A stretch of 64,000 nt of DNA from positions 10,673 through 74,672 of the forward strand of contig DATJQV010000075.1 in assembly GCA_035505375.1 (NCBI GenBank), read 5' to 3'. This stretch comes from a bacterium. Its GTDB lineage: Bacteria; Hydrothermota; Tepidihabitantia; Tepidihabitantales; Tepidihabitantaceae. The notes under the pieces were generated by a model. The model was not told the DNA's origin and searched no databases. It was given only the letters and a program-made list of their open reading frames with translations. Shown here in pieces: positions 10,315 through 63,890 of the stretch. A program made the position numbers and the translations under genes. Within the stretch, counting starts at the first letter, position 1, and each line of letters begins with the position of its first letter.

Positions 10315-10320
10315 CGGTTC

Positions 10321-10490
10321 GGACAAAGCAGAATTCAGAGATCAGAAACCAGAATGCAGAATGATGGAACCGAGAAGCGAAGCTGCAGCCCGGTCGGCAA
10401 TTCTGATTTCTGGTTTCAGTATTCTGATTTCACTATTGTCCGATGCATTGCTGGTTCTGACTTCTGGCTTCTGAATCCTGAGTTGTCGGA
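10321..10490. repeat. intergenic inverted-repeat element of the GGACAAACCAGAA...TTCTGGTTTGTCC family (REP/MITE-like)
   Basis: GGACAAAGCAGAATTCAGAGATCAGAAACCAGAATGCAGAATG ... CATTCTGATTTCTGGTTTCAGTATTCTGATTTCACTATTGTCC. More than 12 copies of the same family occur elsewhere in the window. Confidence 0.65.
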
Positions 10491-10494
10491 CCGG

Positions 10495-11736
10495 CTACGC
10501 TCTGCGTAACTCGCCAGCGTCTGCAACTAGTTCTGTCGGTCGTCCCCGGCTCATGAAATCGAGCAGGCTCATCGTATAGCCATATGCGCCCGCGTTGAGC
10601 AGGCCCACGAGGTCGCCGGGTTTCGGCATCGGCAGGTGTTCATCCTTGGCGATGCAATCCAGCGGCGTGCAAATCGGGCCGCACACGTCCACCCGCCTCA
10701 ACCCTCGTCCCTCGTCCCCCGCCCCTCGTCCCTCATCTAGCCGGTTGAGAAGTCGGGCCGGATGCCTGATGCGCATGAACACCGGCCGCGAAAACGCGTT
10801 CATGCCGCCGTCGCAGATTGCGAACACCCGGCCCCGTGACTCTTTCACCCGCACCACGCGGGTGACAAACACGCCTGCCTCGGCCACGAGAAATCGCCCG
10901 CTCTCGAAGAGCAACCGGCAGTTTGGATTCTCAGCACGAAACGCCGCCAGCGACGCGGACACGGCCTCGGCCAGCCCGGCCAGGTCCAGCTCCGTGTCGC
11001 CCTCGTTCTGCGGCACGCCGAACCCGCCTCCGAAGTCAACGGTCTCCAGCTTGAACCCGATTTCCAGGCTCAGCCGCCGCGCCAGCTTGAACACGTATTC
11101 GATGTGCGTCCCGAGCCACACCTTGTCCAGCACCTGGCTTGCCGAGTAGACCTGGATTCCCGCGATTCTGGCGTTTTCCAGCTTTGCTCCGGTCACGTCC
11201 GTCACGACGCGCTCCTCGTCGAACCCGAACTTGCTCGGGCCGCCGACCATCACTTCCTTGGCTTCGGGCTGCGACTCCTTCGTGTTGATACGAAGGAGCA
11301 CTCGGGGCCTCACCGCCAAGCTGCGTGCGGCAGCCTCGATCAGTTCGAGGTCTGAGGCCGAATCGGCGACGATTGCGTGAACGCCGGCCCGCAGCACCTG
11401 CTCGACGTCGGCCGCACTCTTGGCCGGCGCCACATAGACGATATTCTCGGGAGTGAACCCTGCGGCAAGTGCCGTCGCGAGCTCCTTCGGCGAGCTGACC
11501 TCGGCGCCGGAACCGGAACGCCTCAGGATGTCGCAGACCGACGGGTTTGGATTTGACTTAAGTGAATAGCAGATGTCGAACGCGGGGAAGCTCTGCTTCA
11601 GCAGCCGTAGCTTCGTCCTGATCGCCGTGGCTGAGTAGAGGTAGAGCGGAGTCTGGTATTTGGCCGCAATCTCCTCCAGCGTCACGCCATCCGCCACGAA
11701 CCGGCCATCCTTCACGAAGAAATCATCAAAGCGCAT
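10495..11736 (-). CDS. PLP-dependent decarboxylase of the Orn/DAP/Arg decarboxylase family (fold type III); most likely diaminopimelate decarboxylase
   Basis: PLP-lysine motif YSLKSNPN (compare YAVKAN). The C-terminal motif VCGPICTPLD resembles the LysA CGPLCESGD motif. The GGGFG glycine loop is present and the length is 413 aa. Confidence 0.75.
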   Translation of the reverse strand: MRFDDFFVKDGRFVADGVTLEEIAAKYQTPLYLYSATAIRTKLRLLKQSFPAFDICYSLKSNPNPSVCDILRRSGSGAEVSSPKELATALAAGFTPENIVYVAPAKSAADVEQVLRAGVHAIVADSASDLELIEAAARSLAVRPRVLLRINTKESQPEAKEVMVGGPSKFGFDEERVVTDVTGAKLENARIAGIQVYSASQVLDKVWLGTHIEYVFKLARRLSLEIGFKLETVDFGGGFGVPQNEGDTELDLAGLAEAVSASLAAFRAENPNCRLLFESGRFLVAEAGVFVTRVVRVKESRGRVFAICDGGMNAFSRPVFMRIRHPARLLNRLDEGRGAGDEGRGLRRVDVCGPICTPLDCIAKDEHLPMPKPGDLVGLLNAGAYGYTMSLLDFMSRGRPTELVADAGELRRA

Positions 11737-11747
11737 ACGCTGCCTCG

Positions 11748-11923
11748 GACAATAGTGAATTCAGAATACTGAAACCAGAAACTAGAACTACCGGCCCCAA
11801 TTCTCTCAGCATGTCGTTGCGGGCATTCTGAATTCTGGTCACTGGCTTCTGACTTCTGCTTTCTCCATCCGCGTTCCTAGAATTCTGCATTGTGGTTTCT
11901 GATTTCTGAATTCTGGTTTGTCC
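11748..11923. repeat. GGACAAACCAGAA-family inverted-repeat element filling the intergenic gap
   Basis: GGACAATAGTGAATTCAGAATACTGAAACCAGAAACTAGAA ... TTCTGCATTGTGGTTTCTGATTTCTGAATTCTGGTTTGTCC. It abuts the stop codon of the DUF364-like gene. Confidence 0.6.
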
Positions 11924-12930: not shown

Positions 12931-14259
12931 CTATCGCTCTGCCATCCTCTGCCTCAGCCAATCTCCGAGTTCGGCCGCCAAAGCCTGCTCATGCTCAAGA
13001 TAATTGTGCGGCGCGCCCTCGATGACGACACCGGAAAACGACAGGCAGTTATCAAGGCACTCGGCAATCCCCTCGACGAAGCCTTGCGCCGGGCCGACAA
13101 AGTACTCCTCGACCGTACCGACCGCGAGGAATACGGGCACCTCGACCGCCGCGAGTTCCGGAAACTCCTCCTGGTCGGTGCGGCTGATGTTGAAGATGCC
13201 GGTCAGCGACTTCGGGCCATAGGCTTCAACGAAAGTCCGCGCGGAAACCGGGCCCTCATAGAACCGCGGAGGCATCAACTCCGTCTCCCGCCCCTGCCGA
13301 ACCAATCGTTTGGCATAGGCAAGCGCCTTGGGGAACGTCGCGCCCAACTTCTCATGAATCCAGCCCTGCGTATCAGCCGGAGAAAGCAGGATGAGCCCGG
13401 CGACGCGAGGGTCGCGCGTCCTGGCAAGGTAATGGACGACCTTCATCGCGCCAAGGCTGTGCCCCTGCAGAAACACCTTCCGGCAGCCGCGCGACTCAGC
13501 GAAGTCCACCGCCGCCTTCACATCCGGCAAGCAGTCGCCAAAACGCTCAAACATCCCTCCCACCTGCACATAGTCCAGCCGCTCCGCCACCTTTGGCTTT
13601 TGGCTTTTGGCCTTTGCCTTTTGACTTGAGCCGTCTCCCTCTTTTGTCTCCAGTTCTACATTCTGGTTTCTGGTTTCTGACTTCTGGTTTCTCCGACTCC
13701 GCAGCATGTCTGCAACTTCTGTCTGAGGAAAGTCGAGCTCCGGTTCCCGCTCGCGCAATTCTGAATTCTGGTTTCTGGTTTCTGATATCTGGTTTCTCCG
13801 ACTCCTCAGTACGTCTGCAATATAGTCGTGTCCGCGGTTATTGAACGCCGCAAATGAGATGCCGCTCCGTCGGCATGCGTCCGCCGCGTAGTCTATGAAC
13901 CGATTCTCATAGAAGTTCCCATCCCACCCGTGAACATGAACCAGGCAGAAGGGACTAGGGGCTAGGGGCTGGGGATTAGGGCCCGAAAACCTCGTCTCTT
14001 GTCCCTCGTCCCTCGTCCCAGCGGGTTGGTACATCCCACTGAGTTCCAAGCCATCGTCGGTCACGATGCGACACAGCTCGCCGGGTATGCTGCGAAAACG
14101 GGGACTGTACCGCGCCGTGTTTGATGCAGGCGCTCCGAGGGACTGTCCCCGCTTTCGAAGTAAGCTTCTCGCGTCGCTCCGTGGACGTGTCCCCTCCCTG
14201 GGACTGTCCCCATTTTCGCGGTGCCGGGACTGTCCCCGCTTTGGAATTGGTGTCTTCAC
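12931..14259 (-). CDS. alpha/beta-hydrolase-fold protein (GHSLGA nucleophile elbow) interrupted in-frame by a ~200-bp repeat-element insertion; true start probably downstream of the annotated M
   Basis: N-terminal hydrolase segment LVHVHGWDGNFYEN (HG oxyanion motif) and C-terminal segment VFLQGHSLGAMKVVHYL (GxSxG). Between them lies LRSRRNQISETRNQNSELRE...LRSRRNQKSETRNQNVELETKEGDGSSQKAKAKSQKPKVAE, which is the translation of two GGACAAACCAGAA-family repeat copies plus AAGCCAAA repeats. The extreme N-terminus runs through GGGACTGTCCC repeats. Confidence 0.55.
   Translation of the reverse strand: MKTPIPKRGQSRHRENGDSPREGTRPRSDARSLLRKRGQSLGAPASNTARYSPRFRSIPGELCRIVTDDGLELSGMYQPAGTRDEGQETRFSGPNPQPLAPSPFCLVHVHGWDGNFYENRFIDYAADACRRSGISFAAFNNRGHDYIADVLRSRRNQISETRNQNSELREREPELDFPQTEVADMLRSRRNQKSETRNQNVELETKEGDGSSQKAKAKSQKPKVAERLDYVQVGGMFERFGDCLPDVKAAVDFAESRGCRKVFLQGHSLGAMKVVHYLARTRDPRVAGLILLSPADTQGWIHEKLGATFPKALAYAKRLVRQGRETELMPPRFYEGPVSARTFVEAYGPKSLTGIFNISRTDQEEFPELAAVEVPVFLAVGTVEEYFVGPAQGFVEGIAECLDNCLSFSGVVIEGAPHNYLEHEQALAAELGDWLRQRMAER
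13625..13830. repeat. two tandem copies of the CAGAAACCAGAA repeat element plus AAGCCAAAAGCC microsatellite, embedded in-frame in the hydrolase CDS
   Basis: TTCTGGTTTCTGGTTTCTGACTTCTGGTTTCTCCGACTCCGCAGCATGTCTGCAA occurs twice about 95 bp apart. It is preceded by GGCTTTTGGCTTTTGGCCTTTGCC. Confidence 0.6.
14064..14235. repeat. cluster of GGGACTGTCCC(CGCTTT) repeats plus a CTCGCGTCGCTCCGTGGACGTGTCCC unit; the same family reappears at 61300..61495
   Basis: GGGACTGTACCGCG, GGGACTGTCCCCGCTTTCG, GGGACTGTCCCCATTTTCG, GGGACTGTCCCCGCTTTGG and CTTCTCGCGTCGCTCCGTGGACGTGTCCCCTCC. Compare CGTTCTCGCGTCGCCCCGTGGACGTGTCCCTTCG at 61455-61490. Confidence 0.55.
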
Positions 14260-14394: not shown

Positions 14395-14525
14395 CCAGAA
14401 ACGGCGGAATCCCTGTGTGCTGTATCCTGTCTACTGTCTACTTCGGGCAGTATGCAGCATACAGCACGCAGCATGCAGGTCGTATCCCTGAATGCTGTAT
14501 TCTGTCTACTGTCTACTTCGGCAAG
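14395..14525. repeat. direct repeat of GCTGTATYCTGTCTACTGTCTACTTCGG (2 copies) flanking CAGCATACAGCA-type motifs; family shared with 25445..25560, 25990..26075 and 39218..39245
   Basis: tgctgtatcctgtctactgtctacttcgg ... cagtatgcagcatacagcacgcagcatgcag ... tgctgtattctgtctactgtctacttcgg. Confidence 0.5.
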
Positions 14526-14543
14526 CATCCCGATTCGTGCCCA

Positions 14544-25604: not shown

Positions 25605-25985
25605 TCACTGTGACGTGATCCTCGTCCCGTTTGCGACTGATCTTGTCAAACCGTGGAGCATTCTGGCGATCTCTTCGGTACTCTCGACCATCTCGCGGTT
25701 GTCAGGCATGTATCCCAAGTCCTTTGAGAGAATCAGGTAGTAGCGCAGCTCTTCGAGCGAGCCTTGCGCGATATTGTAGAAGTTGAGCTTGTCCCGGACC
25801 CCGCGCTTCTTGAAGCCTTCCGCCAGATTGGCCGGCACCGAGACTGCGGCTCGTCTCATCTGCGAAGTCAGTCCGAACCGCTCCTCAGCCGGGAAGCTCC
25901 CTGTGATTCGATAGACCTGCAGCACCATCTGGTGGGCCTTCTGCCACACCGTCAAGTCCCCGAATTGCCTTATCTTCTCAGCCAT
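25605..25985 (-). CDS. four-helix-bundle protein (23S rRNA intervening-sequence protein family, PF05635-like)
   Basis: MAEKIRQFGDLTVWQKAHQMVLQVYRITGSFPAEERFGLTSQMRRAAVSVPANLAEGFKKR...NIAQGSLEELRYYLILSKDLGY matches the family consensus. The ORF track extends it to 26066 through a repeat, so an internal start at 25985 is preferred. Confidence 0.6.
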   Translation of the reverse strand: MAEKIRQFGDLTVWQKAHQMVLQVYRITGSFPAEERFGLTSQMRRAAVSVPANLAEGFKKRGVRDKLNFYNIAQGSLEELRYYLILSKDLGYMPDNREMVESTEEIARMLHGLTRSVANGTRITSQ

Positions 25986-25989
25986 GCTA

Positions 25990-26075
25990 GCCAGTATACA
26001 GTATGTAGCATACAGCATCCAAGAGCCGCTCCCTGCATACTGCATACTGTATGCTGTATGCTGCAAGGAAACGCT
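25990..26075. repeat. ATACAGTATGTAGCATACAGCA ... TGCATACTGCATACTGTATGCTGTATGCTGCA palindromic repeat block
   Basis: Internal inverted symmetry (CAGTATACAGTATG / CATACTGTATGCTG). Related to the blocks at 14395 and 25445. Confidence 0.45.
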
Positions 26076-26200
26076 CCTGGCTCTTGTCTGCTTTGGCTGT
26101 CGCGTTCACAGCCACGGCAAACCTCCAACACGGTGCATCGACATGCGTCAGAATGTTAGTCTCGTGCCGTACATAGTCAAGCCCGCGCGCGACTGGGCGG

Positions 26201-26817: not shown

Positions 26818-27036
26818 GTTCTCACCTCTGGCTTTCGTCAGTCATACTATGCCACATGCAACAGCGGATGTCAACCTGCTCACGCTGCGGAGTCGCATTG
26901 ATTGCGGCGGCGCGACGCTGGCGACGGAGGCGTCGGGTTCGGCCGGATCTGGCCTTGCATCAGTAGGGATGTTATGCGCGCGCCGGCTAGAGTCAAGGCC
27001 AGCGCGGGCCGGAGCGATGGAAAGAAGGGGTCTGGC

Positions 27037-27366
27037 GCAGGCCTGGGTGCCGTTGCAGAAGCAGGAACGGCGGCCGTTGCGTCTGCGGGAACGTGGGCCG
27101 GAACGGACGCTGTTTCGGTGTCTGGAACAGATGCTGTTGCGGGCGCAGGCACGAGAGCCGTTGCGGCAGCAGGGCCGGTAGCCGTTGCGATACGAGGACC
27201 GGGTGCGGTTCAGGGCGCAGGTGCAGTGCCGGAACCAAGTGCTGTTGGGGTGAGAGTTCCGGAGGCCGGTGCGATGCCAGACCATGAGGCCGGAGCGGTT
27301 TCCGTTGCAGCGGCCGGAACGGCTGCTGTTTCCGGGGTTGGGCCGGCCGCAGGAACGAGGGCCGGA
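27037..27366. repeat. array of ~27 degenerate 12-nt units (24-nt super-period GCAGGAACGGCG-GCCGTTGCGNNN) with internal inverted symmetry; open in most frames
   Basis: gcaggcctgggt gccgttgcagaa gcaggaacggcg gccgttgcgtct gcgggaacgtgg gccggaacggac ... gccggaacggct gctgtttccggg. Plus-strand translation gives AGTxAV tetrapeptide repeats. Several overlapping ORFs are open on both strands. Confidence 0.6.
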
Positions 27367-27409
27367 TAGGGGGCAGGAACTCCCCCAGCCGTCTAGGGGA
27401 TAGAGAGAA

Positions 27410-27458: not shown

Positions 27459-27692
27459 GAACGGGAAAGACTTAGGACACGACGGCGGGGACGAAGTCAA
27501 AAGGCAGCAGCCAAGAGCCAAGAGTCAAGACCGGAGATCTGGAACGATGAACGGGCGAACTCCGGGTTCACCGAGAGGACGAAAAGAACTGAGGGCTTAG
27601 TGACTCTCTCCGGCTGGGCATAACTTCTTCACACTCAGTCGGTTAAGCGTTATCGCGTTGCGGATAATCCGCATATAGGGGTCGCCTGGGGG

Positions 27693-27970
27693 CTAGCCTT
27701 TGAGGAAGCGTTCAGAGGAGCCATGAAACAAGCCTTGAAGTGAGCTTTGAGTTGAGCTTTCAGAGGAGCTTTGCCGCGAGCTTTCGACTGAGCTTTGCCG
27801 CGAGCGATGCGAGGAGCGATGCGCCGAGCTTTGAGATGAGCAATGCACGAAGCGATGAAGCGAGCTTTGCAGTGAGCCATTGAAGAAGCTATGAAGTGAG
27901 CTTTCGAGTTTGCTTTCTAAGGTACTTTCCGGCGAACTCTGAAACGAGCTTTCGGACGAGCTTTGTGGCG
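27693..27970. repeat. array of ~23 tandem 12-nt units NGAGCTTTGNNN (8 conserved + 4 variable nt), immediately upstream of der
   Basis: ... caagccttgaag tgagctttgagt tgagctttcaga ggagctttgccg cgagctttcgac tgagctttgccg cgagcgatgcga ggagcgatgcgc cgagctttgaga tgagcaatgcac gaagcgatgaag cgagctttgcag ... cgagctttcgga cgagctttgtgg. The only long ORF through it (27693..28424 on the minus strand) starts inside der on the antisense strand. Confidence 0.65.
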
Positions 27971-28062
27971 AAGAATTAGACAAGAATTGACGCGCCACCT
28001 CACGAGTCCGCGCCGCCCTCGGAATCCTCGAAAGCGCGGTGCTTTCTGCTATAATACCACCC

Positions 28063-29517: not shown

Positions 29518-29937
29518 GTGGATACGCTAGACAGACTGGATGACAGGCTGGACATGGACAGCAGGCTGCTGCACTTCGCGGCAGATGTGATCGCGCTGGC
29601 TCCTCGTCTTCAGCGGTCGCCGACTGGAAGGTACCTTGTGGGACAGATGGTACGCGCGGGCACTTCAGCCGGGGCCAACTTCCAGGAGGCGCGCGGGGCC
29701 GAGAGTCGGGCTGACTTCGTGCACAAGATGCAAGTCGTACTCAAGGAGCTGCGCGAGACCGAATACTGGCTCAGGCTCCTCAGAGAGGCCAAGCTGATGC
29801 CATCGGATCTTCTAGCGGGCCCGCTCGCGGAAGTGGACGAACTGATTCGGATCGTCGTCAAGTCGGTGGTAACGGCGAAGACAAGACATTACAATGCGGG
29901 CGGCGGAGAAACCAGAAATCAGATATCAGAGAACTGA
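29518..29937 (+). CDS. four-helix-bundle protein (23S rRNA intervening-sequence protein family), second copy
   Basis: GQMVRAGTSAGANFQEARGAESRADFVHKMQVVLKELRETEYWLRLL matches the family pattern. The C-terminal 12 aa (GGETRNQISEN) are the translation of the adjacent repeat element. Confidence 0.6.
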   Translation: MDTLDRLDDRLDMDSRLLHFAADVIALAPRLQRSPTGRYLVGQMVRAGTSAGANFQEARGAESRADFVHKMQVVLKELRETEYWLRLLREAKLMPSDLLAGPLAEVDELIRIVVKSVVTAKTRHYNAGGGETRNQISEN

Positions 29938-30046
29938 AACCAGAAATGTCCGAAGCCGGCTTTCTGATTTCTGGTATCTGATTTCTGACTTCACCTTTGT
30001 CCGTGTTTGCATTTCTGGTATCTGGTTTCTGAATTCTGGTTTGTCC
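29899..30046. repeat. inverted-repeat element GGCGGAGAAACCAGAAATCAGATATCAGAGAACTGAAACCAGAA ... TTCTGGTATCTGGTTTCTGAATTCTGGTTTGTCC
   Basis: Overlaps the 3' end of the four-helix-bundle gene and the annotated 5' end of the LCP ORF. Confidence 0.6.
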
Positions 30047-30057
30047 GTTCCGCTGCT

Positions 30058-31296: not shown

Positions 31297-31313
31297 TTCA
31301 CGCGACCCGAGCA

Positions 31314-31411
31314 GGACAATTCAGAAGTCAGATATCAGAGACCAGAAACCAGAGAGCCGGCTCCGGGCATTTCTGATTTCACTTTTCTGGTTTCTGACTT
31401 CTGGTTTGTCC
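31314..31411. repeat. GGACAATTCAGAAGTCAGATATCAGAGACCAGAAACCAGA ... TTTCTGGTTTCTGACTTCTGGTTTGTCC inverted-repeat element between the LCP gene and alaS
   Basis: Family core with inverted arms. Confidence 0.6.
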
Positions 31412-31422
31412 GGACCCGCAGG

Positions 31423-34944: not shown

Positions 34945-35041
34945 GACAAATCAGAAATCAGAAACCAGAAAAGTGAAATCGGGATCAGCAGGAGCCGGCT
35001 TTCTGGTTTCTGGTATCTGGTTTCTGGTTTCACTATTGTCC
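34945..35041. repeat. GACAAATCAGAAATCAGAAACCAGAAAAGTGAAATC ... TTCTGGTTTCTGGTATCTGGTTTCTGGTTTCACTATTGTCC element between recX and recA
   Basis: Family core with inverted arms. Confidence 0.6.
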
Positions 35042-37965: not shown

Positions 37966-38712
37966 ATGAAAACGACGCTGCGCACCCGGAAGCTGGAAGA
38001 ACTGAACTGGATGGAGTTCAAACGCATCGTGCCGGAAACGACCGACGTTGTGCTTCTGCCGGTCGGCACCGTCGAAGCCCACGGCGTGACCGGGCTCGGC
38101 ACCGACAATCAGGTCCCGGCGTCAATCTGCAACCGTATCGCGGCCGACGTGAACGCGCTCATCGCGCCCGGGGTAAACTACGGCATCACCCGGTCGCTCC
38201 TGCCCTATCCCGGCTCGGTCACGGTGCTGCCCGAGACGTTCGAACGCTACGTGTTCGAGGCCGCTTCCGGACTGGCTGATGCCGGCTTTCGCAGAATCGT
38301 CATCATGAACGGCCATGGCGGCAACACCGAGGCGCTCAAAGCCGTCTCCGCCCGGCTCTACTGCGAGAAGGAGGTTTACAGCGCGGTACTCGATTGGTGG
38401 ATTCTCTGCGCCGATGAAATCAAGCGGGTCTACGGCCATGCGGGCGGGCACGCGGGCACCGACGAGACGGCGATGGTGCAGGTTGACCACCCCGAGCAAG
38501 TGAGGAAACAGGACTATCGCAAGGAGATGGCCTTCCTCACCCGGCCCGGCCTGGCTGCGACCCCATTCCCCGGTTCCATCATCCTCTACAAGCAGAACGA
38601 AGGCTATCCTGACTTCGACCCGGCAAAGGCCGAAAAGCTCATGGACGCAGTCTGCGCCAAGATTCGAGCGACCATCCTCGACGTTTTCCGCCGCTGGCAG
38701 ACCATCCGCTGA
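37966..38712 (+). CDS. creatininase-family amidohydrolase
   Basis: LLPVGTVEAHGVTGLGTDN and IVIMNGHGGN motifs of the creatinine amidohydrolase family. Confidence 0.8.
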   Translation: MKTTLRTRKLEELNWMEFKRIVPETTDVVLLPVGTVEAHGVTGLGTDNQVPASICNRIAADVNALIAPGVNYGITRSLLPYPGSVTVLPETFERYVFEAASGLADAGFRRIVIMNGHGGNTEALKAVSARLYCEKEVYSAVLDWWILCADEIKRVYGHAGGHAGTDETAMVQVDHPEQVRKQDYRKEMAFLTRPGLAATPFPGSIILYKQNEGYPDFDPAKAEKLMDAVCAKIRATILDVFRRWQTIR

Positions 38713-38879
38713 GAGCGGCCCAAAGTCGGTATCGCCTCAGTCGTCCACAGCAAACTGCCAACTGGGCAGACTGTGACATCTGGCGCTGAAAGCGCCCGTC
38801 AACGGCCACTGAAAAGCTCACCGGAAAGCGCCTCCTGCAGCAGCTCTAATCGTGAGCATCGTCGTATCTCGGGTTGTGT

Positions 38880-39215
38880 ACTGCATCTTGTCTTCGACTG
38901 TATCTTGAACTGCATCTCAACTTCCACCTTGAGCTGGATTCTCAACTGTTCCCGCCATTGGAGTTGTAGGGCAGTGGGAGGAACAATCCGGGAAGCAGCT
39001 CTCCGAGCAAACCGGAGACCAACGGTCGGAGCTACCTCGGGACCAACGAGGAGAGCAACCCGCGGAGTTAGCCGGGCCGCAACGCTCCGACCAACCCGGA
39101 GAGGAACCGGTGGAGTTACGGATAGACTAACCGGGAAAGCTAACCGGAGAGGAACCGGTAGAGCAACCCGGGGAGTTGCGGTGGAGGTTCATCCGGGAAT
39201 TACGGTGGAGATAAC
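38880..39215. repeat. third 12-nt-periodic degenerate array (units like ACCGGAGAGGAA / ACCGGTGGAGTT; proximal part TTGAACTGCATC-type)
   Basis: aaccggagacca acggtcggagct acctcgggacca acgaggagagca acccgcggagtt agccgggccgca ... accggtagagca acccggggagtt. Translation in one frame gives TRRxTGGV-type tetrapeptide repeats. Confidence 0.55.
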
Positions 39216-39426
39216 TCCCCTGTCTACTGTCTACTGAATCTACTATCCCCCGGGCGGGGGAGGTGACTTAGCGGACCATGGCCTAACGCTTCCCACCACA
39301 AGCAGATAGGCCCGAAATCCGGCCCGGCGTCTTGTAGCCAAAGACATATACAAGCCCGCCCAATCTCCAATCGACAATCTTCAACCGAGAACTTAGATTG
39401 CAGGTTGTGGATTGGCGCGGCGCGGG

Positions 39427-40476
39427 CTAGGACCGGTCGGAGGCGGGGACGCGGAGTTTGGCGCAGCGGGCCAGCGACCAGGCATACCAGTCGCAGACGT
39501 CGCCGATGCAGCGGCCGGTTGACTGGCAAAGCGGCTTGACCCGTGCCGGGTCGACCCCGATCTTCACCAGCTCGGCAATCCGTTCGAGGCTGAGTCTGGT
39601 CGCCGGCACGTCCGCCTGGGTAAGGCTGCCGTTGAGGAGCATCTGCCCCTGTTTGTGGTAGAACCACTCTTCCGCTCCGGGTGAATAGCCCTCTTCGAGC
39701 AACTTCGGGTCGTCGGCTGCGGGATCGAGACCCTTTGCCTCCCGCTCGGCCAGGCGTATCAGCTTGGCGGCTTCGCGCAGGTCCACGCCCGCCTGTTTGT
39801 TCCCGAAGATCGCGACGCTGCCGGACGCCCTCCGCTGAATGACGATTGCCGCCCGGGCCCCGAACTCCGACCGGGCGTACTTGTGGATTCCCTCCTCGTC
39901 CGAGTCGATGGTCACGATTCGCAGCCGCTTCTGCCCCATCGTGATCTCTTCGACTCTGGCCCTGGCGTCGAACTCAGGCTTGACCACGGTGAAGAAGCGC
40001 AACTGCTCCTGGTACTTGGCTTCGATGGCGACGAGCGACCATTCGATTGCCCGTTGCGGGTCGGCCGGGTACTGGCCGTGCAGCAGTTTGACCACGTAGG
40101 AGATGTCGAACGGCGAGGCGTTCCCATCGACGTCCGCGGCCTTGACGAACTTTAGTATCTTGGCAAGTGAAGGGTCGTCGCCGACGCCGAGCTCTTTGGC
40201 GACGAGGGTCGTCGCGCATTCATCCGGCTTCCGGCCTCCCTCCGCGGTCGGGTGCTCGTCGAACCGTCCGCCGCCGATGCCGAGCAGCAAGGTCCCCCGT
40301 GCCTCGTAGTCTTCCGGCTTGAGGCCGGTTTCGGCCAGTTTGCGGATGGAGGTGAAGGAAACGGCCGCCGCACCGATGCCGGGAAACCGCGTCTCGCCGA
40401 ACTTGCGGAGCAGCCAGATGGCCACGATTTCGTCGAGGTGCGGCCGCTCGTGGGTCAGGATGGTATTGAAGGCCAC
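39427..40476 (-). CDS. MYG1/UPF0160-family metal-dependent hydrolase
   Basis: N-terminal ILTHERPHLDEIVAIWLL aligns with the MYG1 signature THxGxFHxDEAxAxxLL. The length is 349 aa. Confidence 0.55.
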   Translation of the reverse strand: MAFNTILTHERPHLDEIVAIWLLRKFGETRFPGIGAAAVSFTSIRKLAETGLKPEDYEARGTLLLGIGGGRFDEHPTAEGGRKPDECATTLVAKELGVGDDPSLAKILKFVKAADVDGNASPFDISYVVKLLHGQYPADPQRAIEWSLVAIEAKYQEQLRFFTVVKPEFDARARVEEITMGQKRLRIVTIDSDEEGIHKYARSEFGARAAIVIQRRASGSVAIFGNKQAGVDLREAAKLIRLAEREAKGLDPAADDPKLLEEGYSPGAEEWFYHKQGQMLLNGSLTQADVPATRLSLERIAELVKIGVDPARVKPLCQSTGRCIGDVCDWYAWSLARCAKLRVPASDRS

Positions 40477-59221: not shown

Positions 59222-59324
59222 CAACCCGCTGCGGCGGGATAGATTTAACCTGGAGTCGGGCGGGTGTCGGGAGCCTGACGCGTTAGCTGAAGCGTGATGC
59301 CTGAGGCGTCATGCCGGCCAGATT

Positions 59325-59397
59325 GGCCCCATCGTCTAGCGGTTCAGGACATCACTCTTTCAAGGTGAAGACATGGGTTCGACTCCCATTGGGGCCG
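59325..59397 (+). tRNA. tRNA-Glu (anticodon TTC)
   Basis: GGCCCCATCGTCTAGCGGTTCAGGACATCACTCTTTCAAGGTGAAGACATGGGTTCGACTCCCATTGGGGCCG folds as a cloverleaf. The anticodon loop is CTTTCAA. CCA is not encoded. Confidence 0.85.
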
Positions 59398-59500
59398 GAT
59401 AGCTCAGGGGAAATGGTGAGGGGAGAACAGTGAACTGTGAAACGGGAATCGGGACTCATTTCACCCTTCACTGTCTTCAATTCACCTTTGCCCGGTTGAT

Positions 59501-59573
59501 GCGGGAGTAGCTCAGTTGGTAGAGCACTACCTTGCCAAGGTAGGGGTCGCGGGTTCAAATCCCGTCTCCCGCT
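59501..59573 (+). tRNA. tRNA-Gly (anticodon GCC)
   Basis: GCGGGAGTAGCTCAGTTGGTAGAGCACTACCTTGCCAAGGTAGGGGTCGCGGGTTCAAATCCCGTCTCCCGCT. The anticodon loop is TTGCCAA. It is close to E. coli tRNA-Gly(GCC). Confidence 0.9.
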
Positions 59574-59665
59574 CTTAGAATTGCCGAGTGCCGACTGACG
59601 AATGTCGAATATGGGGCGAATCATCCATTCGGCAATCGCCACTCGCAAAGCGTCATTTCCCTTCT

Positions 59666-59737
59666 GGCGGCTTAGCCAAGCAGCAAGGCGACGGTCTGCA
59701 AAACCGTTATACTCGGGTGCGAATCCCGAAGCCGCCT
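59666..59737 (+). tRNA. tRNA-Cys (anticodon GCA)
   Basis: GGCGGCTTAGCCAAGCAGCAAGGCGACGGTCTGCAAAACCGTTATACTCGGGTGCGAATCCCGAAGCCGCCT. The anticodon loop is CTGCAAA, with a 7-bp acceptor stem and a T-arm. The D-arm is short. Confidence 0.7.
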
Positions 59738-59901
59738 CTTTCCATTGTCGATTTTAGATTGACGATTTTCGATTGCTCGGCCGGGCAACCGTCCCTCGAC
59801 TTCTCTGATCGACATACTACGATCACCAAACTGGCGGCTCTAACGATTCGGATTTGCATTCCGCAATCTCCAATCTACAATCTTGAATCTTCAATGGTCT
59901 T

Positions 59902-59989
59902 GCCGGGGTGGCGGAATTGGCAGACGCCAGGGACTTAAAATCCCTTGACCCGGATTCGGGTCGTGCCGGTTCGACTCCGGCCCCCGGCA
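59902..59989 (+). tRNA. tRNA-Leu (anticodon TAA), type II with long variable arm
   Basis: GCCGGGGTGGCGGAATTGGCAGACGCCAGGGACTTAAAATCCCTTGACCCGGATTCGGGTCGTGCCGGTTCGACTCCGGCCCCCGGCA. The anticodon loop is CTTAAAA. Confidence 0.85.
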
Positions 59990-60051
59990 GTTCACGCCAC
60001 CGGCGGGCGACCGGCGGTTTTCGTTTCTTCCCGGCGGGTTCCGGGAATAAA

Positions 60052-60075
60052 GGCGGCGGCCTTTGGGCCGCCGCT
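60052..60075 (-). terminator. hairpin GGCGGCGGCC-TTTG-GGCCGCCGC followed on the minus strand by UUUAUU; terminator for the 60094..61212 gene
   Basis: 9-10-bp GC stem. The T-tract is on the minus-strand side. Confidence 0.45.
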
Positions 60076-60093
60076 GCGGTGTCGGATTGCGAG

Positions 60094-61299: not shown

Positions 61300-61495
61300 C
61301 GGGAAACAGGGACTGTCCCGCGCTGAGTACGACGCAAGCGCTCCGAGAAACTGCGCTCGTTTTCCGCCATCTCAGCGACAGTCCCCATTTCCCAAGACGC
61401 AGAGGGCGGCCGTAGCCGCCCTCTCGAAGCTCGGATTGGGGCCACTCCCGCGACGCGTTCTCGCGTCGCCCCGTGGACGTGTCCCTTCGTACTAC
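61300..61495. repeat. second locus of the GGGACTGTCCC / CTCGCGTCGCYCCGTGGACGTGTCCC repeat family (compare 14064..14235)
   Basis: GGGACTGTCCCGCGCTGAG...GCGCTCCGAGAAACTG...CAGCGACAGTCCCCATTTCCC...CGTTCTCGCGTCGCCCCGTGGACGTGTCCCTTCG. Confidence 0.5.
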
Positions 61496-63234
61496 TGAAT
61501 AACTACGGGCCTCGTGGTTGTACGCGTGCCGGTGGTGGTGAGGCACACGAGGTACGTGCCGGCCGCGACCTTGCCATCCCAGACGAACGAACCGCCCGCC
61601 GGGGCCGCAATGCTCCGCACGATTCTGCCGGCGACGTCGGTGATCGCCAGCCTGGTCGCGCTGCCGCTCCAGCTCACTCGCACCGGCCCGCGCGCCACGC
61701 TCGGCGCAACCCGGAATGCCGCCGCCGGCCGTTCCGGTTGTGCAGGACTCTCGATCGCGCCGTTGAACCACGGTGCGTTGAAGTAGCCATTCACGTCATT
61801 CGGGTACGTATAGCCGGGGAATATGAGCCCGCCGCCGGAGCCCGGTCCGCCCGGCGAGTAGACTATCCTTGGGAACGCGGTCAAGCCGTAGCCGGGATAG
61901 CCCGATTTGTTGACCCACGTGTCGCTCAGGGCAGTCCAGGTAGTGGGTGCGGTGTTGACCGAATAGCCGAGCCAAACATTGTTGTGATGGTTGACCGTGT
62001 CTATCTTCACGTACGACAGGTTGACGTAGGCGTTGCCCGAGGACGCATAGTTCTTCAGGTCCACGTAAGCTTCCGGGGTTGTGGTGTTGGCGACGTGGGT
62101 GGGGCCGACCCAGGAGTCGCTGGCGCTCACGCCCGGATCTTTCATGTAGGCCGAATACACGTCCCAATCGTTGGTGCCATTGTAGTTGTGGGTGTAAGCG
62201 AGCCAGACGTTGGCGCTTTCCGGCGGGGTTGTGAAGGCCGGCGCTATGGCCGCGTCGTTAATCCGGAACGTATCCGGACGGAAATCCACCATGTACCACG
62301 TGCCCGGCGAGGACCAGTTATGTGTAAAGCCCGTAGCCACGGTGCCCTTGAAGTAGGCCTGGTTCGGCACGCAAGCCATGCAACCGCAGGAACCCGCCCC
62401 GAACGCCATGCGTGGCAGGGCCCGGTTGGGTATCGTGTCCGTCACCGCCCAAGTCTGTCCGAAGTCGAAGGACCGCAGGATGAAGCTCCGCGGAAAGTCG
62501 CCGGACTCGAGGCCGTTGTGTGCAATCGCGTAGAGATAGTACGAGGTGTACGAGTAATCGCGGCAGGCGGTGAAGTCGGTGATGGAGTCCGCCCCGGCGA
62601 GAACCGCCCAACCGGTCAGGCCGGAGCCGTCCTTGGCGCACCGCGCCACGTAGAGGTCGCCGTTGTTGGTGGGGACGTTCTCGAACACGTAGACAAACCC
62701 GGAGTCGCCCGAGCCGACCACCAGCTCGATCTTGTTGATGATGTGTTTCGGGGGCCACCAAATTTCCTGGACTGTGGCCCAGTGTGAACCGTGGTCGGTG
62801 GACTTGTAGACCCAGACCGTCGAGTCGCCGTACGAGGCGAAGGCGGCCCACATCGTGCCGTCCATCTCGTAGTCGGCCGACGAGGCGCTCACACGACCCG
62901 TGAAGATTTGCCGGTCGGCCACGAGGTTGCCCTCGGTTCGCGCCTGCGGGCGGGCGCACATCGGCGTGACCTCGTGCGGCACGGCGCCCTGCTGCCGAAT
63001 CAGTGCTGCCTGCACTTGGTTCTCTAGGTCACGGGCACCGGCCTCGTCCCCATTGGCGAGAGCGATGCGCTCCTGCGCCTGCAACGCAGCGATGTCCGGA
63101 CTCACCCGGGAGTGGTAGTTCCCTGACGTTACACTATTCCCGGTCGGCAACGTGGACCGCGCCGGCGGGGTATTGGCCATCACCATGCCTGCCATGCAGA
63201 GCAGCGCGATGGCAACGACGACTACGCTACGCAT
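61492..63234 (-). CDS. secreted BNR/Asp-box-repeat protein (sialidase/glycoside-hydrolase-like beta-propeller) with T9SS C-terminal sorting domain
   Basis: Signal peptide MRSVVVVAIALLCMAGMVMA. BNR motifs STDHGSHW and SFDFGQTW. C-terminus FRVAPSVARGPVRVSWSGSATRLAITDVAGRIVRSI...FVWDGKVAAGTYLVCL...RPVVIQ. Confidence 0.7.
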   Translation of the reverse strand: MRSVVVVAIALLCMAGMVMANTPPARSTLPTGNSVTSGNYHSRVSPDIAALQAQERIALANGDEAGARDLENQVQAALIRQQGAVPHEVTPMCARPQARTEGNLVADRQIFTGRVSASSADYEMDGTMWAAFASYGDSTVWVYKSTDHGSHWATVQEIWWPPKHIINKIELVVGSGDSGFVYVFENVPTNNGDLYVARCAKDGSGLTGWAVLAGADSITDFTACRDYSYTSYYLYAIAHNGLESGDFPRSFILRSFDFGQTWAVTDTIPNRALPRMAFGAGSCGCMACVPNQAYFKGTVATGFTHNWSSPGTWYMVDFRPDTFRINDAAIAPAFTTPPESANVWLAYTHNYNGTNDWDVYSAYMKDPGVSASDSWVGPTHVANTTTPEAYVDLKNYASSGNAYVNLSYVKIDTVNHHNNVWLGYSVNTAPTTWTALSDTWVNKSGYPGYGLTAFPRIVYSPGGPGSGGGLIFPGYTYPNDVNGYFNAPWFNGAIESPAQPERPAAAFRVAPSVARGPVRVSWSGSATRLAITDVAGRIVRSIAAPAGGSFVWDGKVAAGTYLVCLTTTGTRTTTRPVVIQ

Positions 63235-63404
63235 TCTTCCTCCTTATGAAAACTCTCACACGGATATTCCTGTGCCGTGATTCATAGTAGTGCAGAACTG
63301 ACTGGCGTGCAACAGTTTCGAGTCGACGACGGTCTGCGCCGGCCCGCGAAGCCTAAACTGCCGTAATGGTTCTTGTTAAGCGATAGCGCACATAGAAAAC
63401 GAAG

Positions 63405-63720
63405 CTTCCGGAATCGCCCCCGGAGCCGTTCCCGGGACGGTTCGGGGGGTGGTCCGCGGAGGGACTCTCAAGCCGGTTTCCCCGATGATTCTGACTCCGG
63501 TTTGCGGCGCGACAAGGATGGCGACTCACGACCTGACTTGCGAGGGTATGGGCGGGGTGAATTACCGGCCGATTCGGAGGGAGGCTTGCGGGCCGATTCC
63601 GAAAGGCACTGCGGACGTGACTGAGAAGGCGACCCGCGAGCTGGTCTGCCGCGGGGCTTGCAGGGCGAATCCCGCGGCGATTTGCGAGGCCTGGCTGATG
63701 GCGTCTTACCCTCCACGCCG
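63405..63720. repeat. fourth 12-nt-periodic degenerate array (units like CGAGGGTATGGG / CGGGCCGATTCC / CGAGCTGGTCTG)
   Basis: cgagggtatggg cggggtgaatta ccggccgattcg gagggaggcttg cgggccgattcc gaaaggcactgc ... cgagctggtctg ccgcggggcttg cagggcgaatcc cgcggcgatttg. Open in several frames on both strands. Confidence 0.5.
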
Positions 63721-63890
63721 CAGCCGCGCGCGACGCGGATGAGCACCTTCTGGAAGAGGACAACCCCCTTTTTGTCGCAGTCCCGGCTCTCCGCGTGCGC
63801 CTTGACACACCCGTCTATCAGGGCTATCGTCTGGCAATGAGAGTCCTGGATCCGAGCGGCAGGAAGCACAGGAACGCGGCCCCGGCTGAG

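Follow-up and report, generated by a model that had tools for sequence, protein, structure and literature searches.

Degenerate 12-nucleotide repeat arrays in intergenic regions of a candidate division WOR-3 lineage: a likely dispersed and inherited family of elements

Why do two degenerate arrays with the same period of 12 nucleotides (nt), each built of its own unit, occupy long non-coding gaps of one bacterial chromosome? The arrays were located at 38880-39215 and 63405-63720 of a 64,000 nt stretch (contig DATJQV010000075.1, assembly GCA_035505375.1; hereafter the window). The window is a chromosomal piece, with 62% GC, of a metagenome-assembled genome (MAG) from an uncultured bacterium of candidate division WOR-3, the division to which the closest species-level relatives of this organism are annotated. 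The proteins on either side of both arrays recur with identical sequence in an NCBI MAG and in ENA, JGI and Logan assemblies. A preliminary description of the sequence proposed that the recurrence of the period reflects a common generating mechanism or function rather than chance. The explanation favoured here, with a probability of about 0.4, is that the arrays are lineage-specific interspersed non-coding repeat elements of one WOR-3 group, probably acting as phased binding tracks for a putative oligomeric protein.

Periodicity was measured by autocorrelation, with mononucleotide shuffles and 1000 dinucleotide-preserving shuffles as controls. The autocorrelation of both regions peaks solely at lags 12, 24 and 36, with z=8.8, 9.7 and 7.6 at 38880-39215 and z=5.2, 6.3 and 4.6 at 63405-63720 relative to mononucleotide shuffles. 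The score combining the three lags is 0.470 in the first region compared to 0.258±0.014 after shuffling (z=15.0) and 0.423 compared to 0.280±0.015 in the second (z=9.8). None of the 1000 dinucleotide-preserving shuffles is as high at either locus, and the 12-nt signal reported earlier thus stands well clear of shuffled sequence. Lags 3, 6 and 9 are not raised in either region, showing that the signal is not codon periodicity. Tandem Repeats Finder (TRF) recovers just positions 39092-39175 of the first region and nothing of the second array because the units are merely ~48% alike.

The two gaps, put at 700 and 650 nt in the preliminary description, measure 714 nt (38713-39426, between convergent genes) and 602 nt (63235-63836, between divergent genes) and have no genes called within them. 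Three of the 22 intergenic gaps of the window that exceed 140 nt carry a period-12 signal (z=21.6, 12.6 and 6.4), the same three being the longest gaps, and nine others have period 7. The third period-12 gap, at 26.6-28.0 kb, contains an array with a 24-nt period (27000-27400) and an array of GAGCTTTGnnnn units (27696-27975). A periodicity scan of 248 kb of this WOR-3 lineage detected 22 period-12 arrays with a total length of ~7.1 kb, a share of 2.9% (2.8% for the window taken by itself); 18 of the arrays overlap predicted genes by 11% or less. In the same 248 kb TRF counted 27 period-12/24 and 52 period-7/14 arrays. The corresponding counts for 347 kb of distant relatives are 5 and 2, a strong enrichment of both classes in the WOR-3 lineage.

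The elements are 250-400 nt long and comprise ~20-30 head-to-tail units of 12 nt, each with 4-5 looser positions besides a core of 7-8 nt. Some families also have sequences that frame the units, either a leader outside the repeat or a hairpin with a trailer. Dispersal of complete elements is seen in the GAGCTTTGnnnn family, whose member in the window (27642..27975, + strand) has a leader (GTTAAGCGTTATCGC ... CGCATATAGGGGTCGCC) followed by ~23 units and ends ~60 nt before the start of der (engA). Arrays of this family align over their full length, their unit variants following one another in the same sequence, in the window, L004, L093, L025 (two copies) and L026 (nhmmer E values of 1e-56 to 1e-109; sequences outside the window are designated by L numbers). 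The whole-array copies are found at unrelated loci and in both orientations: upstream of der in the window, upstream of a 575 amino acid (aa) gene in L093, after a creatininase-like gene in L025b and L026, beside a transposase in L025a, and in L004. Three of the copies have the leader CGCATATRGGGGTCGCC in common. In L025, GAGCTTTG-family arrays of the same orientation (36-397 and 2535-2935) flank a DDE transposase gene (402-1505) and a creatininase-family gene, which hints that arrays are insertion hot spots or move with mobile DNA. A leader also connects the 27.7 kb array to the array at 63.4 kb. Within the 64 kb, the 15-nt pattern GTTAAGCGnTAnCGC is matched exactly only at 27642 and at 63375, and at both sites a G-rich array of period 12 follows on the + strand within a few tens of bases. 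The period-24 array of the third gap (GTTGCGnnnGCn GGAACGnnnGCC, ~17 double units, 27000..27400, + strand) has a DUF433/PIN-like toxin-antitoxin pair on one side and the 27.7 kb array on the other, with heptamer runs (AAACCAG x5 and AGCCAAG x3) intervening between it and the latter.

The 38.9 kb region was first taken for a single array. A print in 12-nt register and column counts reveal a composite of a 7-unit block, a 20-unit block, a hairpin and a trailer. Sub-array 1 (38873..38956, + strand) has 7 units of ACTGYATCTYGA, with C>G and T-rich on that strand. Sub-array 2 (38981..39220, + strand), the main body of the region, has 20 units of GAGYWACSSGGR (= GAGCAACSSGGR), with G>C and 61% purine. 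The distinct units assigned earlier to the two loci were recovered in other phases, ACCGGNGGAGNN being the sub-array 2 unit and CGRGGNNNNTYN the unit RYTYSCRRGGYG of the 63.4 kb array; treating the first region as one array was not sustained. Sub-array 2 ends in a heptamer run identified by TRF, (CTGTCTA) x2.4 (39220..39236, + strand), and the array is closed by the hairpin CCCCC-GGGC-GGGGG (39247..39260), which is not followed by a U-tract. Among the relatives whose sequence extends beyond the array, the hairpin is kept in L014, L017 and L019, the L014 version (CCCCT-AGGC-AGGGG) displaying one compensatory change from C-G to T-A. The trailer motif CAAGCAGATAGSCYYGAA (39299..39316, + strand) is unique within the window, has exact matches in L014, L015 and L019, and belongs to a conserved non-repeat segment (~39280-39400) that aligns without gaps to L014 at 69% identity.

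Directly after the creatininase-like gene, a possible remnant of 3-5 units of the GAGCTTTGnnnn family was tentatively recognized by eye on the - strand (38787..38850, reading nnnnGAAAGCKC on the + strand). Its match to the GAGCTTTGnnnn family profile is weak (nhmmer, 38787-38833 on the - strand, E=0.15, score 7.3), and the corresponding position in L025 and L026 is occupied by a full array of that family. L033 contains ~20 units of CTGTATCnnnnn (1945-2305), the same unit type as sub-array 1. This counterpart of sub-array 1, together with the GAAAGCKC units resembling the L025 and L026 arrays, argues that two or more oppositely oriented elements make up a mosaic at the 38.9 kb locus. Between the creatininase-family gene and the arrays (38755-38796) there are also two small GC hairpins, CTGCCAACTGGGCAG and GGCGCTGAAAGCGCC, neither with a U-tract on the sense strand.

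The left neighbour of the locus is the creatininase-family gene (37966..38712, + strand) and the right one a gene coding for a 349-aa protein without Pfam domain (39427..40476, - strand). Period-12 arrays are found repeatedly just downstream of relatives of the creatininase-family gene whose products are 75-85% identical, and arrays homologous to 38981-39220 are present in L014, L017, L019, L015 and L020 (nhmmer E values of 1e-7 to 1e-126). An association of the array with the 349-aa gene was rejected: synteny is broken in 9 of 9 relatives, none of which has an array downstream of that gene. Sub-array 2 accompanies the creatininase-gene side, and the 349-aa gene adjoins the array in the window alone. 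Orthologous units of the window and L014 are 71% identical compared to 48% for non-orthologous units in register (0 of 10000 permutations as high), and the sole internal indel is exactly one 12-nt unit. The relatives that differ by this one unit have 83% amino-acid identity in the flanking gene. Unit-by-unit orthology and a single indel of unit size show that the 38.9 kb array is old and stable, not a fast-changing variable-number tandem repeat (VNTR). Mismatches to L019 amount to 33% at the best-conserved (core) positions and 50% at the others, and in comparison to L017 orthologous units are unrecognizable (46% identity relative to a 48% background). Three independent records of the window organism are 100% identical over the array parts that they cover, one of them covering only part of the 63.4 kb array.

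The shared leader, the unit-level orthologues and the whole-array copies favour common descent and dispersal over generation at each locus. These two processes, with a short core additionally kept under constraint, would account better for the shared period than its repeated origin de novo. The proposal that the recurrence is not due to chance was right, given a signal far above shuffles and the enrichment across the lineage, while the idea that units arose independently at each locus found no support; a family of elements, inherited and dispersed, is the most likely cause. A common function of the arrays is plausible. When copies of the GAGCTTTGnnnn family are compared, core positions (G, A, G, C, T) are 72-90% identical and the remaining positions 45-65%. 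Within the 27.7 kb array some positions are 95-100% conserved and others near random (heterogeneity p=3e-9), and positional conservation is likewise uneven in the 27.0 kb array (p=7e-11). Conservation of the core over the spacers and this heterogeneity within arrays point to a nucleotide motif under selection that is repeated at constant distance.

The second array (63404..63703, + strand) was delimited by column counts and shuffles and has 25 units of RYTYSCRRGGYG, with G>C on the + strand. The leader motif GTTAAGCGATAGCGC (63375..63389, + strand), followed by CACATAG, stands just upstream of it. The array is bordered on the left by a gene for a 580-aa protein whose homologues have secretion-tail domains (61492..63234, - strand) and on the right by a HAD hydrolase gene (start at 63837, + strand). 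It lies between two divergent promoter-like sites, TTGACA-17-TATCGT on the hydrolase side (63802-63830) and TTGCAC-17-TACTAT for the 580-aa gene, the latter recognized by eye and kept in L092, and is therefore probably outside both neighbouring mRNAs. The hydrolase-side site ends 7 nt upstream of the called ATG (63837), implying either that the hydrolase mRNA is leaderless or that translation truly starts at the in-frame ATG 63891. L092, whose 580-aa orthologue is 83% identical, has no array upstream of the gene and shares the last ~90 nt before the start codon. L093, with a 66% identical orthologue, has upstream of the gene 29 units of AYTnnnGRnnTG, the unit type of the window, and then 16 units of GAGCTTTGnnnn, the array being inverted relative to the gene. 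Orthology of individual units between the 63.4 kb and L093 arrays was rejected, no register standing out (0.32-0.43 at all offsets). In L093, three different period-12 blocks follow each other back to back (2186-2938, ~750 nt) beside a HepT/MNT toxin-antitoxin pair, and a near-consensus promoter-like pair, TTGACG-16-TACAAT, was seen by eye between the last block and the 580-aa orthologue.

A period of 12 nt could also arise in genes for proteins with four-residue repeats. In each array one or more frames contain no stop or a single one, such as the open reading frames (ORFs) 38773..39237 (154 aa) and 63449..63742, and one database gene caller predicts a 116-aa ORF in the related L093 array. 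Six-frame translation gives stops in most frames of every array, and the frames without them are open because the conserved nucleotides exclude stop codons. In a codon-usage log-likelihood trained on long genes of this lineage, the values per codon are -0.36 to -0.006 for all ORFs spanning an array and +0.233±0.107, with a minimum of +0.05, for genes of the window. Mismatches between the window and L014 arrays are spread over the codon phases (24/18/27), compared to an identity of 0.88/0.90/0.66 by phase in the neighbouring gene, and the open frame varies between homologous arrays. Column counts give no three-base rhythm for the invariant positions of the arrays, those at 27 kb included. TGA, an ordinary stop in this genome (21 of 42 genes), occurs in frame at chance frequency (6 of 23 fourth codons at 27.7 kb). 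There are no Pfam matches in the arrays, and both gaps are without a called gene in the source databases. A coding origin has hardly any chance of being correct, and the arrays are, judged from their sequence, in all probability untranslated and non-coding, as the preliminary description assumed. The 27.7 kb array can be read as GCN-NTN-NNN-NRA, a chain of mini-ORFs with ATG at triplet 2 and TGA/TAA at triplet 4.

Action of the arrays as RNA was also considered. Six folds with shuffle controls, covering both strands, show no stable fold (z from -1.13 to +1.67). In three Rfam scans the only matches of the window at gathering score are four tRNAs, and permissive scanning of both gaps gave chance-level matches; a known Rfam family was rejected since no covariance model matches the arrays. 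Consensus scans, whose consensus may not be that of WOR-3, found neither a promoter before nor a U-tract terminator after either array. RNA sponges of the CsrB/RsmZ type are encoded at multiple paralogous loci, measure 250-400 nt and carry ~20 copies of a short motif. Arrays of 250-350 nt with ~20 motifs resemble CsrB and might similarly be transcribed from a promoter in their own leader to titrate an RNA-binding protein. The 38.9 kb family is enriched in GGA (17 compared to 10.9±2.1 in the window, 18 compared to 11.9 in L014), two arrays have a leader ahead of their G-rich orientation, and a hairpin follows the 38.9 kb array. However, GGA is not enriched at 63.4 kb (9 compared to 11.9) and barely so at 27.7 kb, the conserved core being GAGC and not GGA. 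The sponges also differ in having GGA motifs in hairpin loops, a promoter and terminator signature, structure and an Rfam model: in the arrays no fold signal places the motifs in loops, alignments inspected by eye give no conserved -35/-10 pair in the leaders, and the hairpin lacks a U-tract. A sponge function is very improbable.

The RNA alternative with more to recommend it, though still improbable, holds that the C-rich strand is transcribed into an oversized Rho utilization (rut) track with a YC dimer every 12 nt, which would load Rho to stop read-through or antisense transcription and so insulate neighbouring genes. Sites of this kind have ~78 nt, C>G and cytosines every 11-13 nt (PMC6407284), with YC dimers at regular spacing (PMC13613805). 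The 12-nt spacing, C>G skew and absence of structure in the arrays match these descriptions, and the orientation of the arrays was therefore tested. Every array has one strand with a C/G ratio of 1.2-1.9 and a conserved YC at fixed phase, and the C-rich strand is no more structured than shuffles (z=+1.67 at 27.7 kb). The composition expected of rut (C>G, C or YC every 11-13 nt, at least 70-80 nt, unstructured) is present on one strand of every array, a result of little discriminating power because it is near automatic for skewed 12-nt arrays. Both 38.9 kb sub-arrays of the window present their C-rich strand to the adjoining convergent gene, and C-rich arrays follow the gene end in L025b, L026, L032, L033 and L023. 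Among arrays at gene ends, 7 have the C-rich strand as sense and 3 do not, and 5 further arrays are in divergent promoter regions. The latter (27.0, 27.7 and 63.4 kb, L093 and L004) have no upstream gene to terminate. The orthologues of sub-array 2 in L019, L017 and L015 have the G-rich strand forward between co-directional genes, and the convergent gene that faces sub-array 2, the 349-aa gene, does so only in the window. The C-rich strand retains 23-28% G, and a need for YC alone would not keep a core of 7-8 nt. Natural rut sites are ~60-80 nt, 3-5 times shorter than the arrays, lie downstream of a transcribed region and have neither such a core nor repeat families. With orientation and position fitting inconsistently, the Rho reading is not favoured.

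Mixed orientation relative to genes and the position of the 63.4 kb array upstream of both promoters favour binding at double-stranded DNA over a role as RNA. Combined with a core at strict phasing, they are best accommodated by an orientation-independent binding track, for which plasmid centromeres offer a precedent (PMC6009700); this multi-site track is an inference from the analysis. According to the favoured explanation, the 12-nt period would have been inherited from a common ancestral element and then retained, each unit constituting one binding module. A putative oligomeric or filament-forming protein would contact the array at each short core, once per 12 nt, and the array might insulate or organise neighbouring transcription units from within long intergenic regions. 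A bolder version is unlikely. It regards the arrays as assembly tracks of a putative WOR-3-specific nucleoprotein system in which the core would be read every 12 nt on DNA or on a C-rich, super-rut-like transcript, insulating or co-regulating the neighbours, with paralogous binders for each family.

Several observations weigh against binding tracks. No binding protein was identified for the arrays, and a 12-bp spacing fails to hold sites on one face of B-DNA. Cores differ between families (GAGCTTTG, GAGCAAC, AYT..G and CTGTATC), requiring either one protein of loose specificity or several proteins. Between families nhmmer found nothing beyond weak matches, and the 63.4 kb array, which has no array-wide homology to the others, is linked to them by the 15-nt leader and the unit type. 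Position-specific conservation is not significant in the 38.9 and 63.4 kb arrays (p=0.21 and 0.22), and the former diverges at about the synonymous rate, being 71% identical compared to 65% at four-fold sites of the flanking gene. These two copies could be decaying rather than maintained, and the possibility that the arrays are fossils of selfish or neutral minisatellites thus retains substantial weight, although it is less probable than binding tracks. A 12-mer would have been amplified once or a few times in an ancestor and whole arrays copied by recombination or transposition; the copies would serve no function for the host, and the period would be a historical accident passed on to all descendants. 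Such an origin is in line with the loss of recognizable units in L017, with the location of arrays in variable regions by toxin-antitoxin genes and a transposase, with their mixed orientation relative to genes and with the variation among lineages of the array content after the creatininase-like gene. Higher-order periods of 24 and 36 nt are typical of satellite-style duplication. Uniform decay, however, cannot yield nearly invariant positions beside near-random ones as found at 27.7 and 27.0 kb, and cores outlast spacers between diverged copies. Arrays of 300 nt persist with indels only of unit size, despite the deletion bias of bacteria, while four-fold sites are down to 57-65% identity, and several unrelated-looking cores all recur at exactly 12 nt.

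The closest known sequences are the intergenic heptamer repeats (PMC4679880), interspersed minisatellites and repetitive extragenic palindromic (REP)-like elements. A search of the literature on periods of 12 nt and on repeats in WOR-3 gave no relevant result, and no annotation pipeline or Rfam model describing the arrays was found. Short tandemly repeated repetitive (STRR)/heptamer sequences are intergenic in cyanobacteria, Beggiatoaceae and Bacteroidetes, the TAACTGA repeats among them (MacGregor 2015, PMC4679880). Like the present arrays they have short head-to-tail units, are intergenic and abundant in a lineage, and were proposed as protein-binding sites. The arrays differ in their unit of 12 nt, repeated 20-30 times in degenerate form with a conserved core and a variable spacer, and in being homologous as wholes between loci and genomes. 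Both arrays were excluded from the heptamer repeats by their 12/24/36 period, as lag 7 is not raised in the two gaps (z=2.4 and 0.1); heptamer arrays are numerous in the same WOR-3 genome as a separate class. The mycobacterial interspersed repetitive unit (MIRU)/VNTR loci have units of 40-100 bp, which may hold small ORFs; the units of one locus are nearly identical, and their number varies from strain to strain. They share with the arrays the scattering of tandem blocks over intergenic regions and the presence of related copies at many loci. The arrays have old, diverged 12-nt units and a stable copy number, and with units ~48% alike and one unit of difference at 83% flanking-gene identity between species-level relatives this class was also rejected.

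The REP, bacterial interspersed mosaic element (BIME) and miniature inverted-repeat transposable element (MITE)-like repeats are hairpin-forming palindromes with no internal periodicity, some REP/BIME sequences being known protein-binding sites. They too are lineage-specific, non-coding families dispersed between genes in either orientation, but the 12-nt arrays have neither inverted-repeat structure nor a fold signal. An array of clustered regularly interspaced short palindromic repeats (CRISPR), with repeats of 23-50 nt and unique spacers, was rejected as the units have 12 nt with just 4-5 variable positions. In the plasmid pBtoxis the tubC repeat unit is 12 bp, and the proteins that coat centromere arrays also repress a nearby promoter. 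Like the arrays, the tubC/TubR and parC/ParR centromeres and iterons have direct repeats of ~11-12 bp in blocks, and centromere blocks are cooperatively coated by small DNA-binding proteins (PMC6009700). Centromeres have 4-10 near-identical repeats by par genes of plasmids and phages, whereas the arrays have 20-30 degenerate units, with several arrays per 64 kb of a chromosome that carries metH, der and tRNAs. A plasmid or phage centromere or iteron was rejected on this chromosomal context and the lack of partition genes nearby, the neighbours being the creatininase-family, HAD hydrolase and secreted protein genes.

The window has a second abundant class of repeats, palindromic elements of ~100-180 nt whose arms are tandem heptamers (WTTCTGR in one arm, YCAGAAW in the other) with conserved ends GGACAAWAG ... 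CTATTGTCC. They are found in short gaps between convergent or co-directional genes, at 10319-10497, 11747-11923, 29904-30047 and 34945-35040, with further sites at 13583-14040, 14409-14541, 25973-26103 and 31310-31420, and look like MITE/REP-like hairpins or terminators built of heptamers. The spacers of a tRNA cluster (Glu, Gly, Cys, Leu; 59222-60093) also have period-7/14 repeats (z=7.9).

The arrays are a practical warning for genome assembly, as independent contigs break at or within them. L002 ends at window position 39351, ~130 nt past the 38.9 kb array, and L227 at 63496, inside the 63.4 kb array. Short-read assemblies may thus be broken up by the arrays, and MAGs may contain too few of them. 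About 3% of the lineage DNA sampled, including the three longest intergenic gaps of the window, consists of 12-nt-phased arrays. If these are selfish satellites, they would be a useful example of degenerate minisatellites that have lasted long in a bacterium. If the core marks a binding module, the arrays would belong to a protein-nucleic acid system not yet described, in a candidate phylum, with possible roles in chromosome organisation, promoter insulation or termination, and would offer a handle for finding the binding protein, if one exists.

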